This document shows positions 6,364-23,639 of a DNA stretch of 23,639 nt, piece by piece. Within the stretch, counting starts at the first letter, position 1. Each line of letters starts with the position of its first letter. The notes beneath the pieces are model-generated. The model worked only from the letters and a program-made list of their open reading frames with translations, searched no databases and had not been told where the DNA came from. Both the position numbers and the translations under genes were made by a program. The stretch comes from a virus (Duplodnaviria > Heunggongvirae > Uroviricota > Caudoviricetes): the IMG/VR virus record IMGVR_UViG_2874945390_000005, one strand, 5' to 3'.

Positions 6364-6686
6364 ATGACTAAAAATACTCGTTTTTCCCCCGAAGTCCGTC
6401 AACGGGCAGTCCGTATGGTTCTGGAAAGTCAGGGCGAATATGACTCACAATGGGCGACAATTTGTTCCATTGCTCCAAAGATTGGCTGTACGCCGGAGAC
6501 TCTGCGTGTCTGGGTTCGCCAGCATGAGCGGGATACCGGGGGCGGTGATGGAGGGCTCACCACCGCTGAACGTCAGCGTCTGAAAGAGCTGGAGCGTGAA
6601 AATCGTGAACTGCGCCGCAGTAACGATATCCTTCGCCAGGCTTCCGCTTATTTTGCGAAGGCGGAGTTCGACCGCCTCTGGAAAAA

Positions 6687-6690
<4 letters not shown>
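6364..6690 (+). CDS. IS629 OrfA
   Basis: 108-aa [45 protein letters not shown]..., IS3-family OrfA with HTH. Confidence 0.9.
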
Positions 6691-7573
<883 letters not shown>

Positions 7574-8551: not shown

Positions 8552-8718
8552 AGCGTGAGCGGTAATTACGCAGGCGCGGGTCGATATATTCAGGGAATTT
8601 GTCTATTGTCGCTTTTCGCAACGGTCTCATTGCTGTTTCGTTTGTTCGGTCCTTTGAGGTAGCCTGAGTTTAACGGACACTCCTTCCTGAAATAGAATGG
8701 CATCAGAAGGAGCTAATA

Positions 8719-9021
8719 ATGAGCAGAAAAACCCAACGTTACTCTAAAGAGTTCAAAGCCGAAGCTGTCAGAACGGTTCTTGAAAATCAACTTTCGATCA
8801 GTGAAGGCGCTTCCCGATTATCCCTTCCTGAAGGCACTTTAGGACAATGGGTTACCGCCGCCAGAAAAGGGCTCGGTACTCCTGGTTCCCGCACGGTGGC
8901 TGAACTGGAATCTGAAATTCTGCAACTGCGTAAGGCGTTAAATGAAGCTCGCCTTGAGCGAGATATATTAAAAAAAGCAACAGCGTATTTTGCACAGGAG
9001 TCGCTGAAAAATACGCGTTAG
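8719..9021 (+). CDS. IS600 OrfA
   Basis: 100-aa ORF MSRKTQRYSKEFKAEAVRTVLENQLSISEGASRLSLPEG...; A7G slippery run near 8970-8980. Confidence 0.9.
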   Translation: MSRKTQRYSKEFKAEAVRTVLENQLSISEGASRLSLPEGTLGQWVTAARKGLGTPGSRTVAELESEILQLRKALNEARLERDILKKATAYFAQESLKNTR

Positions 9022-9056
9022 TCGAACAATGGCGACAACAATTTCCCATTGAAGCG

Positions 9057-9875
9057 ATGTGTCAGGTATTTGGTGTATCCAGGAGCGGTTATTACAACTG
9101 GGTACAGCATGAACCCTCAGACAGAAAACAAAGTGATGAGCGGCTAAAACTGGAGATTAAGGTGGCACATATCCGCACTCGCGAAACATATGGAACCCGG
9201 CGGCTCCAGACGGAGCTGGCAGAGAATGGCATCATCGTTGGTCGTGACCGACTGGCACGTCTTCGTAAGGAGCTAAGGCTACGCTGTAAGCAGAAACGCA
9301 AGTTCAGAGCGACTACGAACCCGAACCACAATCTGCCAGTTGCGCCAAATCTGCTGAACCAGACGTTCGCTCCTACAGCACCAAATCAGGTCTGGGTGGC
9401 GGACCTGACGTATGTTGCCACACAGGAGGGATGGTTGTACCTCGCTGGCATCAAAGATGTTTATACGTGCGAAATTGTCGGCTACGCCATGGGAGAGCGC
9501 ATGACAAAAGAGCTGACAGGTAAAGCCCTGTTTATGGCGCTCAGGAGCCAGCGCCCACCTGCCGGGCTAATCCACCACTCTGATCGAGGTTCACAGTACT
9601 GCGCATACGATTACCGGGTCATACAGGAGCAGTTTGGTCTGAAAACATCAATGTCGCGTAAAGGTAACAGTTACGACAACGCTCCGATGGAAAGCTTCTG
9701 GGGAACGCTGAAAAATGAGAGCCTGAGCCACTATCGTTTTAATAACCGGGATGAAGCCATCTCAGTAATACGGGAATACATTGAGATTTTCTACAATCGT
9801 CAGCGTCGTCACTCTCGTCTGGGGAATATCTCCCCGGCAGCCTTCAGGGAAAAATATCATCAGATGGCTGCTTAA
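9057..9875 (+). CDS. IS600 OrfB (DDE transposase)
   Basis: 272-aa ORF with an IS3-family integrase core (...HHSDRGSQYCAYDYRVIQEQFGLKTSMSRKGNSYDNAPMESFWG...). Normally expressed as an OrfAB fusion by -1 frameshift. Confidence 0.9.
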   Translation: MCQVFGVSRSGYYNWVQHEPSDRKQSDERLKLEIKVAHIRTRETYGTRRLQTELAENGIIVGRDRLARLRKELRLRCKQKRKFRATTNPNHNLPVAPNLLNQTFAPTAPNQVWVADLTYVATQEGWLYLAGIKDVYTCEIVGYAMGERMTKELTGKALFMALRSQRPPAGLIHHSDRGSQYCAYDYRVIQEQFGLKTSMSRKGNSYDNAPMESFWGTLKNESLSHYRFNNRDEAISVIREYIEIFYNRQRRHSRLGNISPAAFREKYHQMAA

Positions 9876-10282
9876 AAAAAGAACAAATGGTAGTGTCCGC
9901 TATTGCCAGTACACCTCATTGACTTGATGAAATTGTGCACTTCAACCGAGGTTTGCAGCGGCGCGTTACTGAAGCCTTTAGGCCACACCCCGAACTTCTC
10001 TTTGTAGGTATGAGCGCACCATCCGTCACTCAGTGGCTTACCTGTCGCGTTGCGGTAATTCTGATAGCCCTTGATCTCACTCCACCACCGCTGTTTTTCC
10101 TCGCGGCTGTATTCGCGTTTCCCTTTGTTTACGCGAGAGAGTTTTCGATCGCGGTCTGTTGCCACATCATCGCCACCAAGAGGACGAAACCCACATTTGG
10201 GACACATGTGTACACCAGCAGGCTTCATGAAGTGGCATTTGGGGCATTCTCTGGGAAGTTTTTCAGCTTTTAACCTCGCCAC
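9872..10282 (-). CDS. Zinc-ribbon protein (CPKC...CPKC), 3' end replaced by IS600 sequence; native part 9919..10282
   Basis: GTG start at 10282-10280 lies 20 nt upstream of the helicase stop. MARLKAEKLPRECPKCHFMKPAGVHMCPKCGF... The last 15 codons are read from the IS600 right end. Confidence 0.5.
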   Translation of the reverse strand: MARLKAEKLPRECPKCHFMKPAGVHMCPKCGFRPLGGDDVATDRDRKLSRVNKGKREYSREEKQRWWSEIKGYQNYRNATGKPLSDGWCAHTYKEKFGVWPKGFSNAPLQTSVEVHNFIKSMRCTGNSGHYHLFFF

Positions 10283-17777: not shown

Positions 17778-18596
17778 ATGTGTCAGGTATTTGGTGTATC
17801 CAGGAGCGGTTATTACAACTGGGTACAGCATGAACCCTCAGACAGAAAACAAAGTGATGAGCGGCTAAAACTGGAGATTAAGGTGGCACATATCCGCACT
17901 CGCGAAACATATGGAACCCGGCGGCTCCAGACGGAGCTGGCAGAGAATGGCATCATCGTTGGTCGTGACCGACTGGCACGTCTTCGTAAGGAGCTAAGGC
18001 TACGCTGTAAGCAGAAACGCAAGTTCAGAGCGACTACGAACCCGAACCACAATCTGCCAGTTGCGCCAAATCTGCTGAACCAGACGTTCGCTCCTACAGC
18101 ACCAAATCAGGTCTGGGTGGCGGACCTGACGTATGTTGCCACACAGGAGGGATGGTTGTACCTCGCTGGCATCAAAGATGTTTATACGTGCGAAATTGTC
18201 GGCTACGCCATGGGAGAGCGCATGACAAAAGAGCTGACAGGTAAAGCCCTGTTTATGGCGCTCAGGAGCCAGCGCCCACCTGCCGGGCTAATCCACCACT
18301 CTGATCGAGGTTCACAGTACTGCGCATACGATTACCGGGTCATACAGGAGCAGTTTGGTCTGAAAACATCAATGTCGCGTAAAGGTAACAGTTACGACAA
18401 CGCTCCGATGGAAAGCTTCTGGGGAACGCTGAAAAATGAGAGCCTGAGCCACTATCGTTTTAATAACCGGGATGAAGCCATCTCAGTAATACGGGAATAC
18501 ATTGAGATTTTCTACAATCGTCAGCGTCGTCACTCTCGTCTGGGGAATATCTCCCCGGCAGCCTTCAGGGAAAAATATCATCAGATGGCTGCTTAA
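17778..18596 (+). CDS. IS600 OrfB (copy 2)
   Basis: Protein identical to the copy 1 OrfB. Confidence 0.9.
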   Translation: MCQVFGVSRSGYYNWVQHEPSDRKQSDERLKLEIKVAHIRTRETYGTRRLQTELAENGIIVGRDRLARLRKELRLRCKQKRKFRATTNPNHNLPVAPNLLNQTFAPTAPNQVWVADLTYVATQEGWLYLAGIKDVYTCEIVGYAMGERMTKELTGKALFMALRSQRPPAGLIHHSDRGSQYCAYDYRVIQEQFGLKTSMSRKGNSYDNAPMESFWGTLKNESLSHYRFNNRDEAISVIREYIEIFYNRQRRHSRLGNISPAAFREKYHQMAA

Positions 18597-18989
18597 AAAA
18601 AGAACAAATGGTAGTGTCCGCTATTGCCAGTACACCTCATACTGGCCCCGTCGCGATCGCCTGGATACAGCTATCGACTACCTGAACACTCAGGCCGGTG
18701 AAGGTATCATCCTGAATGCTGATCACATCCCTGAGCGTGACGTCACTCCCGCATCAGATGAGATTATCAATGAGATCACTCAGGCAATCACCGAAATTAA
18801 CAAGACATGGGATGACCTGCTTCCCTTATGTTCCAAAACATTCCGTCGCACGATTGCATCACATGAATATCTCAGTCAGGAAGAAGCTGTCAAAACGCTT
18901 GATTTTGTCAAAAAGAAAGCTGCCAGAAACAAGGCCACGGCGGAAGCGAAAATTCACGCCACCACGGAAAATAGCAGCGAGGCCGTGTC

Positions 18990-19679
18990 ATGACACCAGA
19001 AATTATTCTCCAGCGAACTGGCGTGGATATTACCAGCCTCGACCAGGGCGATGATGGATGGCACAAGCTGAGACTCGGTGTTATCACTGCTTCAGAAGTT
19101 CACAATGTGATAGCAAAGCCACGTTCCGGCAGCAAATGGCCTGATACAAAAATCTCATACTTCCACACCCTGCTGGCTGAAGTTTGTACCGGCGTGGCAC
19201 CGGAAGTTAACGCTAAGTCGCTCGCATGGGGAAAGCAATACGAAGATGATGCCCGTGCCATCTTCGAATTTATCGCGGATGTTACCGTCTCGGAAACGCC
19301 AATAATTTTTCGTGACGAAAGCATGCGCACCGCCTGCTCTCCCGACGGTTTATGCAGCGACGGTAACGGCCTTGAGCTTAAATGCCCCTTCACTTCCCGC
19401 GACTTCATGAAGTTCCGGCTTGGCGGCTTTGACGCTATCAAGCCTGCTTACATGGCCCAGGTGCAATTCAGCATGTGGGTTACAGACAAGGACGCCTGGT
19501 ACTTCGCCAACTACGACCCACGCATGAAGCGTGAAGGCCTGCATTATGTCGTGGTCGAGCGGGATGAAAAGTACATGACGAGTTTTGATGAGATGGTGCC
19601 GGAGTTCATCGACAAAATGGACGAAGCACTGGCGGAAATTGGTTTTGTATTTGGAGAACAATGGGGGGTTAATAACTAA
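18990..19679 (+). CDS. exo: Lambda-type 5'-3' exonuclease (Red-alpha / YqaJ family)
   Basis: [47 protein letters not shown]...[20 protein letters not shown]... is close to lambda Exo as recalled. ATG overlaps the recT stop (ATGA). Confidence 0.9.
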
Positions 19680-20158: not shown

Positions 20159-20379
20159 CAAATATGGTTTCCACTCTCAAAGACAAAGACAATCGCAGCA
20201 AAAACGTAAGCCAGAATCATGCAGATGATTATGGTTACAGCCAGAACGATTACCCTCCTTTCTGATTACTGAAAATAAGGCTCCCATTAATGCCAGCGCC
20301 TCTGTATGGTGCGGATGACCCGCGCAACTGCTCCGGTAGCTCCAAGGCGGAGGTGCTGGAAAATATCAAAATGAAGTGG

Positions 20380-21528
<1,149 letters not shown>

Positions 21529-21548
<20 letters not shown>

Positions 21549-22194
21549 TGGAGCACCTGTGTTGTTCTGAGGTGAGCATATCACCTCTGTTCAGGTGGCC
21601 AAATTCAGTGTGCCACTTTACATTATCAAGTTGCTTGTTACGTGATGCCAAGATGTTCTGTTTGGCAATTTCACAGAGTTCTTCATCGCTCTTATCGGTC
21701 ATGTAAATAAACTGACCAGCACCTCTTGAAGCTTTAACCATCTTCACAATCCGGTATCCATCAGGAAGATTATTAATCACGTCTGGGATATTCTCAGGAA
21801 AAGTACCAAAACCATCATTATCTGTATATGTGAAGTAAACATACGGCTTTTGTGACAATTCATCCTGAATCTCAAATTCTGATGGCTCAATAGCTGATTG
21901 CATCAAGGTAACTTTGCTGTAAGCGTCATCAAGTTTAAGACGCTGTGCTTTTAGCAGTGGGTAATATTCACGCTCAAGATTAAATAATGCTTCACTCTTG
22001 CAAATATCAGGCATCTCTTGAGGTTCAGGAGTCACAAAGATGATTTCCTTTGGTGACATCTTTAGCTCTTGCTCAAGCTTAATTCTTTCATTGTGTTCTT
22101 TACGCTGAATAGTGATAGCTGGATGTTCAGTCTGTGGTGACCAGTCACCGAAGCTATCAATCTTTCTGCCGTTAATAAATAAATCGTTTGTCAT
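21529..22194 (-). CDS. Unknown protein in a low-GC block, 3' end replaced by the IS911 terminus; native part about 21622..22194
   Basis: ATG at 22194-22192 with GAGGAAA upstream ([44 protein letters not shown]...). The last 30 or so codons are read from the IS911 inverted repeat. Confidence 0.45.
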
Positions 22195-22216
22195 TACTAT
22201 TTCCTCTTCTAAGTAA

Positions 22217-22306
22217 TATTCAGTTTTTAAAAAGCACACCTGACAGCCTACGAACTTAGAAGAGACTTAAAAGCGTTTGCCAAGTGCGCTTTTTAAAAAC
22301 TGAATA
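22217..22306. repeat. Perfect 19-bp inverted repeat (tattcagtttttaaaaagc / gctttttaaaaactgaata) separated by 52 bp
   Basis: Arms at 22217-22235 and 22288-22306, read directly from sequence; located 23-112 nt upstream of the 22194 start. Confidence 0.7.
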
Positions 22307-22657
22307 GCCCTAGATAATTTCTTATAAAGGGCCATTCATAAGGTGAAGAAATTAAAAGAACATCTAAAGGATTCAATAACGAATGAACAAAGACTTTTTG
22401 AGATAGCCTATCTAGTGTGGGCTAAATATGCCATGACGAAAAGCATTGCACCTTTCAGAATGACTATCCCTAGATGTAGATGGAATTGTTGAAAGAAATA
22501 AGAGAGAATTGCTCTCCCATACTTAAAATTATGGCATACCTAAGGTTATTTGTCAACAGCTTTTTAACAGATTGGTAACATTAATTTTTATTTACTGTGT
22601 TACCTACCCAGCAACCAACAAATAAGCCAAGCAACGTCCAAGCAATTATTAAACCCA

Positions 22658-22981
22658 TTAGTGAACCCTCACAGAATCCGTAACCAAAATATTGTCAGCG
22701 TACAAAATTGCTATAGCCGCCTTGAGATATTTTTCAGGGCTAACGCTGTATCGGTTAGTTTCCTCAATAATAAGACGCTTCATGTTTGAGTCGCTAACAG
22801 GAAACATAAAACGTGGGTCACCAGTTTCAATTTCCTGAATAAAATCTTCAATTGCTTCTGAGTTCTCAGCCATTAGTTTTAACAGCCTGTCAAAGTCAAT
22901 GCTAATACCTGCATCAGTGAAATGCTGAATCATCAGAGCGGTGTTGGCATCAATCATAATTTGCATTGAGTAATTGTTCAT
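22658..22981 (-). CDS. Unknown protein, 107 aa, low GC
   Basis: ATG at 22981-22979 preceded by AAGGAG (MNNYSMQIMIDANTALMIQHFTDAGISIDFDRLLKLMAENSEAIEDF...). Confidence 0.5.
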   Translation of the reverse strand: MNNYSMQIMIDANTALMIQHFTDAGISIDFDRLLKLMAENSEAIEDFIQEIETGDPRFMFPVSDSNMKRLIIEETNRYSVSPEKYLKAAIAILYADNILVTDSVRVH

Positions 22982-23139
22982 TTTTAAAATCTCCTTTTTT
23001 TTACCAGACCTCCTCAATCGCTCTGTAACGAGCTAAACAGTCTTTTTCAGGGGTAGCCTGTACAGTGGTATTACCCACCCTAAAATAAGATAGTTTTTTG
23101 CGTTAGAATGCGATTGAGAGCGTCTGAGAAGCTGTTTTT

Positions 23140-23427
23140 CTAATTTCTCTTAAAGTCTCGGACTTGCATAAGATTTTTGGGTCTGGTATCGGCTCTGTTA
23201 CCATTTCGATGGATAATTTGCTTATTGGATTGATAGCCATGATAAAGGAACCAGACAACATATTTCACGTAGAAAGTATATCGGCCTATATTAAATGTTT
23301 TGTTGCCGTAGTCGTCGGTATTTATCGTGACTGACTCTCCATCAGACCAGCACAGGGAATCACTGGATTCATCATAGATAAGGTGTTCTGTAAAATATCG
23401 TCTAACATCTTCATGCCAAGGTTTCAT
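23140..23427 (-). CDS. Small HNH-type endonuclease (HNH_3-like motif IIHRNGNRADTRPKNL)
   Basis: 95-aa ORF; motif H-x-N-G-N...N-L near the C-terminus; its start overlaps the upstream ORF stop (ATGA). Confidence 0.55.
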   Translation of the reverse strand: MKPWHEDVRRYFTEHLIYDESSDSLCWSDGESVTINTDDYGNKTFNIGRYTFYVKYVVWFLYHGYQSNKQIIHRNGNRADTRPKNLMQVRDFKRN

Positions 23428-23639
23428 AAAACCTCCTCACCCCAATAACCTAATTCAATCTTGTGACGCTCAAACCATTCTGGTTTAACTGCTGTTTTCA
23501 GTGCTTCATTTGGGCCAATGGCTTTAATGAAAATATCTTTTGAGTTATGGATGTCACCGAATCCGTTTCCTTCAATCAGGAGGTCGGAGATGTAGCGAAT
23601 CATTTTATCCGTGTGGTATTCAAAGGTAACGCATAGCAT
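23424..23639 (-). CDS. Unknown protein, possibly 5'-truncated at the window edge
   Basis: ORF reaches the last base of the window; translationally coupled to the HNH gene. Confidence 0.4.
   Translation of the reverse strand: MLCVTFEYHTDKMIRYISDLLIEGNGFGDIHNSKDIFIKAIGPNEALKTAVKPEWFERHKIELGYWGEEVL

Follow-up and report, generated by a model that had tools for sequence, protein, structure and literature searches.

The window, a 23,639-nt stretch of viral DNA, holds an inverted repeat that forms, in RNA of the minus strand, a real, conserved and strand-specific hairpin just upstream of the first gene of a tail-gene operon. The loop of this hairpin and the Shine-Dalgarno (SD) site of the gene that follows are complementary, and the two covary across the types in which the element occurs. 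On the sequences at hand, the hairpin most likely controls translation of the following gene. No regulatory signal is clearer in the island to which it belongs, one that E. coli carries very commonly, and, if the loop silences the first gene of the tail operon, the hairpin would provide a simple handle on when the island is switched on. If this holds true, it would be the third sequence-unrelated case, after C4 of P1 and CI of P4, of a co-transcribed antisense RNA directed against the next ribosome-binding site. The features discussed here are collected in Table 1.

Table 1 Features of the hairpin, its leader and the flanking genes, in coordinates of the window.
Feature	Position	Strand	Remarks
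IS3-family element (IS911-like)	20250-21618	minus	OrfA and OrfB translations; left boundary approximate
Regulated gene, first of the tail-gene operon (236 aa when intact)	21619-22194	minus	truncated here after ~190 codons
SD target ACUUAGAAGAGG	22203-22214	minus	SD of the first gene; begins 2 nt past the stem
Hairpin 3' arm	22217-22245	minus	left arm of the previously noted repeat, extended
Hairpin apical region	22246-22277	minus	32 nt, weak internal structure
Anti-SD UCUCUUCUAAGU	22254-22265	minus	in the apical loop; 11-nt perfect inverted repeat with 22204-22214
Hairpin 5' arm	22278-22306	minus	right arm of the previously noted repeat, extended to 29 nt
G+C hairpin 'T3', GGCCCT...AGGGCT	22306-22333	minus	directly 5' of the big hairpin
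Central leader hairpin ATGGCATATTTAG...CTAGATAGGCTAT	22403-22434	minus	from sequence inspection
Invariant leader motif GAAAGGTGCAATGCTTTTCG, 20 nt	22437-22456	minus	in all nine first relatives
5'-proximal terminator-like hairpin 'T1', GGGAGAGCAATTCTCTC then TTATTTCTTTC	22491-22518	minus	also found in L004
Sigma-70 promoter TTGACA, 17 nt, TG-n-CATAAT	22528-22556	minus	11/12 matches plus extended -10

A conserved hairpin of the gene strand

The arms of the repeat, TATTCAGTTTTTAAAAAGC (22217-22235) and GCTTTTTAAAAACTGAATA (22288-22306), are exact reverse complements of 19 bp with 52 bp between them, and the repeat extends to 23 bp with 1 mismatch; all of these figures, given in a preliminary description of the region, were reproduced. 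At its longest extent the repeat measures 29 bp (22217-22245 and 22278-22306) with three mismatches, corresponding to 90% complementarity, and the arms are then 32 nt apart. The three mismatches, all of them transitions, become G.U pairs in the minus-strand RNA, which is predicted to form a single unbroken stem of 29 pairs with a folding energy of -51 kcal/mol (z = -7.13; 0/200 shuffles equally stable). The plus-strand RNA, by comparison, reaches only -34 kcal/mol.

Related loci, about 100 of them from viral and metagenome contigs, were fetched through the invariant leader motif, which has exact matches in 6 viral and 99 metagenome stretches; this route was chosen after a scan of species-representative genomes with the 236-aa protein had given one locus only. 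Wherever the sequence of a related locus extends far enough, a long hairpin occupies the same position, exactly one per locus, and the main stem comprises 21-32 pairs in all 77 distinct variants. The arm sequences fall into at least five types and are completely different between island types, with the pairing kept: the arm reads CAGYUUUUAAAAAGCAYACUUGGCA in type A, UUUCUUAAUAGAGCAUCUU in type B and UUUCGUCAAGUACAUUUGAUAGC in type C.

A consensus fold of 20 representatives, calculated with RNAalifold, contains 18 pairs, 11 of them with compensatory double changes. Each of 100 sources contains a single gene-strand match to the covariance model built from the representatives, scoring 70-120 bits (in the window, 102 bits at 22192-22312 on the minus strand), while the palindromic echo on the opposite strand amounts to only 35-47 bits. 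In the alignment fitted to this model, 99.8% of 1401 pair cells form standard pairs, and in 10/18 pairs both partners have changed. Covariation scores 0.488, where shuffles give 0.273 and none of 500 reaches the observed value, and sliding one partner by 1-3 columns as a control lowers the pairing to 41-53%. Counted over 20 stem positions in 78 distinct variants, G.U cells number 218 and A.C cells 18, a bias which argues that RNA of the gene strand has been under selection, not double-stranded DNA. Compensatory changes in about 100 loci, the RNA-like strand asymmetry and the covariation of loop and SD described below support the large regulatory hairpin that was one of several options in the preliminary description; since the related sequences comprise about five types, the changes represent a handful of independent evolutionary events and not hundreds.

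Loop, Shine-Dalgarno site and leader

The genes flanking the hairpin are all on the minus strand. On this strand the hairpin lies 22 nt upstream of an ATG (22194), and 2 nt separate its end from the stretch ACUUAGAAGAGG, which holds the SD site and is read from 22214 to 22203. The loop sequence UCUCUUCUAAGU can form 12 pairs with this stretch, yielding a duplex of -17.0 kcal/mol, compared with about -7 kcal/mol for shuffled loops. Within the whole leader the best partner of the SD window is the loop, at -16.6 kcal/mol, and partners elsewhere reach -11.9 kcal/mol or weaker. The same complementarity is found in the relatives: in 75/77 distinct modules the loop-SD duplex has an energy of -13 to -22 kcal/mol, where loops shuffled in place give about -6 to -9 kcal/mol, and the two exceptions are artefacts of automatic parsing. 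Complementarity spans 9-12 nt or more, including the GAGG core of the SD, and a net -8 to -14 kcal/mol is left once the cost of opening both partners is paid.

Loop and target change together between types. In types A-C the loop reads CUUCUAAG and the ribosome-binding site CUUAGAAG or CUUAGA(A)G, and in types D-E the loop reads UUCACCUC and the ribosome-binding site GAGGUGAA. Mean energies for cognate combinations of loop and SD range from -14 to -18 kcal/mol, whereas non-cognate combinations of A-C with D-E average -6 to -11 kcal/mol. On a finer scale, types B and C display a matched gain of GUGU/ACAC pairs on one side, and type E, relative to type D, has lost one pair at one end and gained one at the other. 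The relevant strand, the promoter and the complementarity of the loop to the ribosome-binding site had all been missed in the preliminary description.

The hairpin is the last element of a structured leader of ~330 nt behind a near-consensus promoter, ~230 nt downstream of which it is located. The same promoter is present in relatives L004 and L021 and visible in the upstream regions of all nine first relatives; as judged from its position, transcription would probably start near 22521. The stems of T1 are altered yet still pair in relatives (AGGAAGAG..TTTTCCT and AGAGAG..CTCTCT, compared by eye), and the central hairpin has counterparts at the same place (GGCCTTTCAG/CTGAGAGGCT and GACCTCT/AGAGGTC, compared without a formal count of pairs). 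Behind T3, most relatives have a U run with which the 5' arm of the big hairpin also begins, and T3 might act as a terminator; its loop is longer than 8 nt, hence its absence from the list of the terminator scan. Together, the terminator-like hairpins and the still-pairing central stem suggest that read-through control of the operon may be layered on top.

Several smaller observations concern the same region. The leader as delimited here (22306-22556, minus; 5519-5761 in L004) comprises up to three terminator-like hairpins behind the conserved promoter, and the longer leaders of some relatives contain an extra inserted module of ~110 nt. An upstream frame of 22 codons (22240-22335, minus) starts in the window 29 nt before the 5' arm. 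Further upstream, a 25-codon hydrophobic frame, MGLIIAWTLLGLFVGCWVGNTVNKN (22581-22658, minus), overlaps the stop of the 108-aa gene and terminates shortly ahead of the leader promoter, and similar small hydrophobic frames are present in relatives. A plus-strand ORF of 49 aa (22343-22492) was rejected as a gene, being broken by indels in L001-L003 and by a module insertion in other relatives, as assessed by eye.

Proposed mode of action and alternatives

We consider it slightly more likely than not that the loop silences translation of the operon by pairing with the SD, either in trans or after excision of the hairpin. The long stem would present a loop of ~32 nt carrying the anti-SD, and pairing of this loop with the SD would prevent the ribosome (30S) from binding and leave the operon translationally silent. 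Because the pairing covers the GAGG core, a block of 30S binding would be its simplest effect. The linker between stem and target measures 2 nt in the window and 2-11 nt in types A-C (medians of 7 in type A, 4 in B and 4 in C), while the stem of 21-32 pairs is roughly 60-90 angstroms long; moreover, the full hairpin is 24 kcal/mol more stable than a fold in cis with the lower stem open and the loop on the SD. With so short a linker against so long a stem, the loop of an intact molecule should be unable to reach the SD, from which we infer that pairing is intermolecular or follows excision of the hairpin from its transcript. RNase III would be the enzyme to cleave the long regular stem, freeing a stem-loop with the anti-SD. 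Stems of this length and regularity are within the size class of RNase III substrates, and the 29 unbroken pairs in the window provide the two turns or more of regular double-stranded RNA that such cleavage calls for. The analysis shows the hairpin itself, the strand on which it acts as a structure, its conservation and the covarying match of loop and SD; that the promoter is used, that the effect is repressive and not activating, that the RNA acts in trans and that RNase III processes it are the parts of this scheme that we infer.

The arrangement resembles that of C4 in phages P1 and P7 (RF01695), a regulator on the same strand and in the same transcript as its target, just upstream of it, with a loop complementary to the ribosome-binding region of the next gene. 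C4 is processed from a transcript that also carries its targets, and between P1 and P7 the loop of C4 and its target have changed in a matched way, as is the case between types A-C and types D-E here. In our loci the hairpin is likewise on the strand of its target, with a covarying complementarity of 12 nt, and the single promoter suggests that the two are co-transcribed. The likeness ends with the fold and the genes: the element is a single ~90-nt hairpin with one large loop and not the C4 fold, and the genes downstream are unrelated to icd and ant. No consistent CCA follows the stem among the variants. The C4 model has no match at the hairpin, including in a permissive scan of 22150-22720, and matches the window only at 15099-15186. 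RNA-OUT of IS10 is similar in size, being a long stable stem-loop whose loop initiates pairing with the translation start region of its target; it is, however, encoded on the opposite strand and fully complementary to the target, whereas here regulator and target share a strand and ~9-12 nt pair.

In satellite phage P4, the CI RNA arises by processing of its own transcript and has seqA and seqC as pairing partners (PMC4825925). As in P4, where an RNA from the untranslated leader of a phage-dependent island pairs with sites of the same transcript and shuts off downstream genes (PMC4825925), our hairpin belongs to a leader and matches a site behind it, with processing as a presumed further parallel. 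Unlike in P4, where CI leads to premature termination of transcription, the complementary site here is the SD itself, and there is no similarity to CI in sequence or model. The Rfam scan of the window at gathering thresholds returned no family at the leader, and a permissive scan of 22150-22720 together with a scan of seven related loci returned only matches, far below threshold, to hairpins of plant microRNA precursors. The principle is known from C4, CI and RNA-OUT, and the sequence family and the single long-stem form are absent from the libraries searched.

Of the two targets of P4 CI, seqA lies upstream and seqC downstream. In the loci studied here, the complementary site downstream of the loop, at the SD, is always present. 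A further, upstream 13-nt site complementary to the loop occurs in 6/94 loci in which the loop was located by motif, 48 of these 94 reaching at least 4 kb upstream. Loop-complementary sites of at least 12 nt number 15 on the gene strand and 0 on the other, against 1.6 with shuffled loops. Most islands lack the extra upstream sites, whose non-coding examples show no link to the loop type that they would match, and one such second-target site, in type B, lies in a coding repeat. In some type A islands the site is a 13-nt perfect complement of the loop, ACTTAGAAGAGAC (with GGC in L012), which is non-coding and on the same strand ~4 kb upstream (10709-10721, minus, in L002; equivalents in L012, L047, L049, L054 and L058); the loop variant to which it corresponds in L002 and L012 is the one with U/C.

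That the hairpin serves only in processing or stability, with RNase III separating the leader from the coding part or with the stem stabilising the mRNA from its 5' end, and that the anti-SD is secondary, seems to us unlikely as a full account. Its models would be the RNase III hairpin of the lambda N leader and the inter-cistronic sites of T7. The stem of 21-32 pairs does exceed what is needed to display a loop, and the hairpin directly precedes the ribosome-binding site, just as the long regular hairpin of the lambda N leader, downstream of a phage promoter, stands before the first gene's ribosome-binding site. We know of no complementarity between loop and SD in the lambda N leader, and we recognised no nut site or N-like protein in our loci. 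A pure processing element would leave two observations unexplained, the joint change of loop and SD between types and the rank of the loop as best partner of the SD in the leader; as a role in addition to silencing, processing is compatible with our main explanation and not exclusive of it. Greater doubt attaches to an intramolecular switch or activating pseudoknot, in which the A+U-rich lower stem would be opened, for instance by a ribosome on an upstream frame, and the loop would then pair near the start. RepY/repZ control in plasmid ColIb-P9 and the rpsO leader offer parallels, both having a hairpin loop complementary to a stretch by the ribosome-binding site of the next gene. The lower 19 pairs of the window stem are indeed nearly all A-U, the predicted fold pairs loop and SD when the lower 5' arm is blocked, and about half of the variants have short upstream frames that run into the 5' arm, in several types ending at a UAA just before the anti-SD. 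However, many type A variants have no such frame, nor do types C and E, and most of the frames lack an SD, begin within the hairpin upstream and change in frame and length as a T run grows or shrinks. The repZ and rpsO pseudoknots form within one molecule and have short stems, and that of ColIb-P9 activates translation; our stems are far longer, the linkers of types A-C are too short for an intramolecular pseudoknot and only type D, with 11-22 nt, has one that could suffice. The GAGG core, moreover, is itself paired, which favours a block over activation, and the 24 kcal/mol by which the full hairpin exceeds the switched fold likewise speaks against a switch.

Readings in which the repeat does not act as RNA of this operon fare worse. 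We find it very improbable that it works as DNA, be it as the site of a dimeric regulator, as a cruciform or as a crossover site for a serine recombinase. The island does encode a large serine integrase and a small invertase-like recombinase, and the arms include the palindrome TTTTTAAAAA. Yet the arm sequences are wholly different between island types with pairing retained, and the excess of G.U over A.C is not expected of double-stranded DNA. The recombination site proposed in the preliminary description is further contradicted by arms that are 32-52 bp apart with no adjacent half-sites, by a position in the middle of the island and not at its ends, and by a spacer whose orientation is constant in 78/78 variants; a crossover site of the hix/gix or att kind was rejected because the arms are unconserved although recombinases are present throughout, and because the site is single. 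Hardly credible at all is a repeat element with miniature-transposon ends, or an intrinsic terminator of the upstream gene, even though a long perfect intergenic inverted repeat near several insertion sequences could bring either to mind. The preliminary description had recommended a search of the genome for further copies of the 19-mer; a search of the window found only the two arms with up to three mismatches (0.00 expected from 100 shuffles). One copy in the window and one per related locus, a median of one place in each E. coli genome that carries the repeat, none on plasmids and a constant position in the island do not fit the ends of a miniature element, another option of that description, and the candidate was discarded. 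A terminator, which the description had already thought unlike the repeat, was correctly dismissed: the terminator scan has no call over 22217-22306 for either strand, the sequence after the stem is AUAUUACUUAG when the minus strand is read and GCCCUAGAUAA when the plus strand is read, neither of them a U run, and the hairpin stands ~230 nt past a promoter and 22 nt before a start codon.

Silencing of the operon by the loop, the explanation we favour, has points against it as well. Anti-SD sequences are rich in pyrimidines and such runs are common, and for type D a shuffled loop forms as strong a duplex as the observed one in 0.5-4.5% of trials. The longer type D linker might permit pairing in cis, and the mode of action need not be uniform. 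No separate promoter or terminator bounds the hairpin as an RNA of its own, and, given the terminator-like hairpins of the leader, control of translation may rank second to control of transcription.

The E. coli island and the rest of the window

The hairpin had been described as lying upstream of a truncated low-GC gene, which holds and can now be completed: the gene is a minus-strand ORF that starts at the ATG at 22194 and is cut at ~21618 by the IS911-like element. Its product is 60% identical to intact E. coli homologues over residues 1-181, after which IS sequence follows, and 21400-21618 is 100% identical to sequence at or next to an IS911-family copy in L001. The insertion cuts off the regulated gene and the rest of the operon, so that in the window the island is decayed and the hairpin a relic; nothing in the window's genome depends on it.

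The region matches 460/5426 complete E. coli genomes at 60-95% identity, always on the chromosome and at a median of one place per genome. Intact copies form an island of ~12 kb at various chromosomal sites, one of them flanked by tonB and yciI, with the hairpin in the middle. The island encodes, in order, a small invertase-like serine recombinase, a Dam-type methylase, several unknown proteins, an HNH nuclease and a 107-aa protein, followed by the leader, the 236-aa gene, a 71-aa gene, a tape measure protein and a Dit-like tail protein, with a large serine recombinase on the other strand. In the window the island spans 21619-23639 and continues past the window end; intact copies extend over 349-11398 in L002 and 6491-17181 in L114. 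Felix-O1-like myoviruses have tape measure proteins ~30% identical to that of the island, and the HNH protein encoded in the window recurs unchanged in 11010 blocks of the assembly collection. Most island proteins have no match to a profile family. The 236-aa protein in particular has no meaningful match in Pfam, PHROGs, NCBIfam or PADLOC, the phage genome collection holds neither a DNA match for the region nor a protein match for the 236-aa gene, and the exact protein of the 108-aa upstream gene is not on record. Our literature search found no paper describing the island or its RNA.

The island, so common in E. coli, has the look of an undescribed satellite-like element and may be a more interesting object than the hairpin. 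We tentatively raise the possibility that the hairpin is an excised antisense 'immunity' RNA of these ~12-kb satellite-like islands, which would silence the tail operon in trans until a helper phage arrives; types A-C and types D-E would then be specificity groups, comparable to the heteroimmunity of P1 and P7.

A module of ~120 nt is present twice in the island, in inverted orientation and ~3.4 kb apart (6948-7068 and 10481-10601 in L002, 71% identity; 23045-23165 in the window). The inverted pair adjoins the invertase-like recombinase in the intact island, and the small recombinase gene is oppositely oriented in L114 and L118; the segment between the modules may be invertible.

The window as a whole is a mosaic of prophage pieces and insertion sequences, and none of the complete E. 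coli genomes covers more than 37% of it in one place. The island fragment is joined by the IS to the recombination genes of another prophage, which include a lambda-exonuclease-like ORF (18990-19679). Two 100% identical ISs of 1265 bp in direct orientation (8655-9919 and 17376-18640), annotated as IS600 family in a matching E. coli record, bracket ~7.5 kb of prophage DNA. Rfam places isrK (14998-15074) next to a C4 antisense RNA (15099-15186) on the plus strand; they are an immunity-type RNA pair of a different prophage, 7 kb from the hairpin. Other Rfam matches are an ALIL pseudoknot, a frameshift signal of the IS3 family, on the plus strand (6645-6761) and sRNA-Xcc1 on the minus strand (2051-2134).
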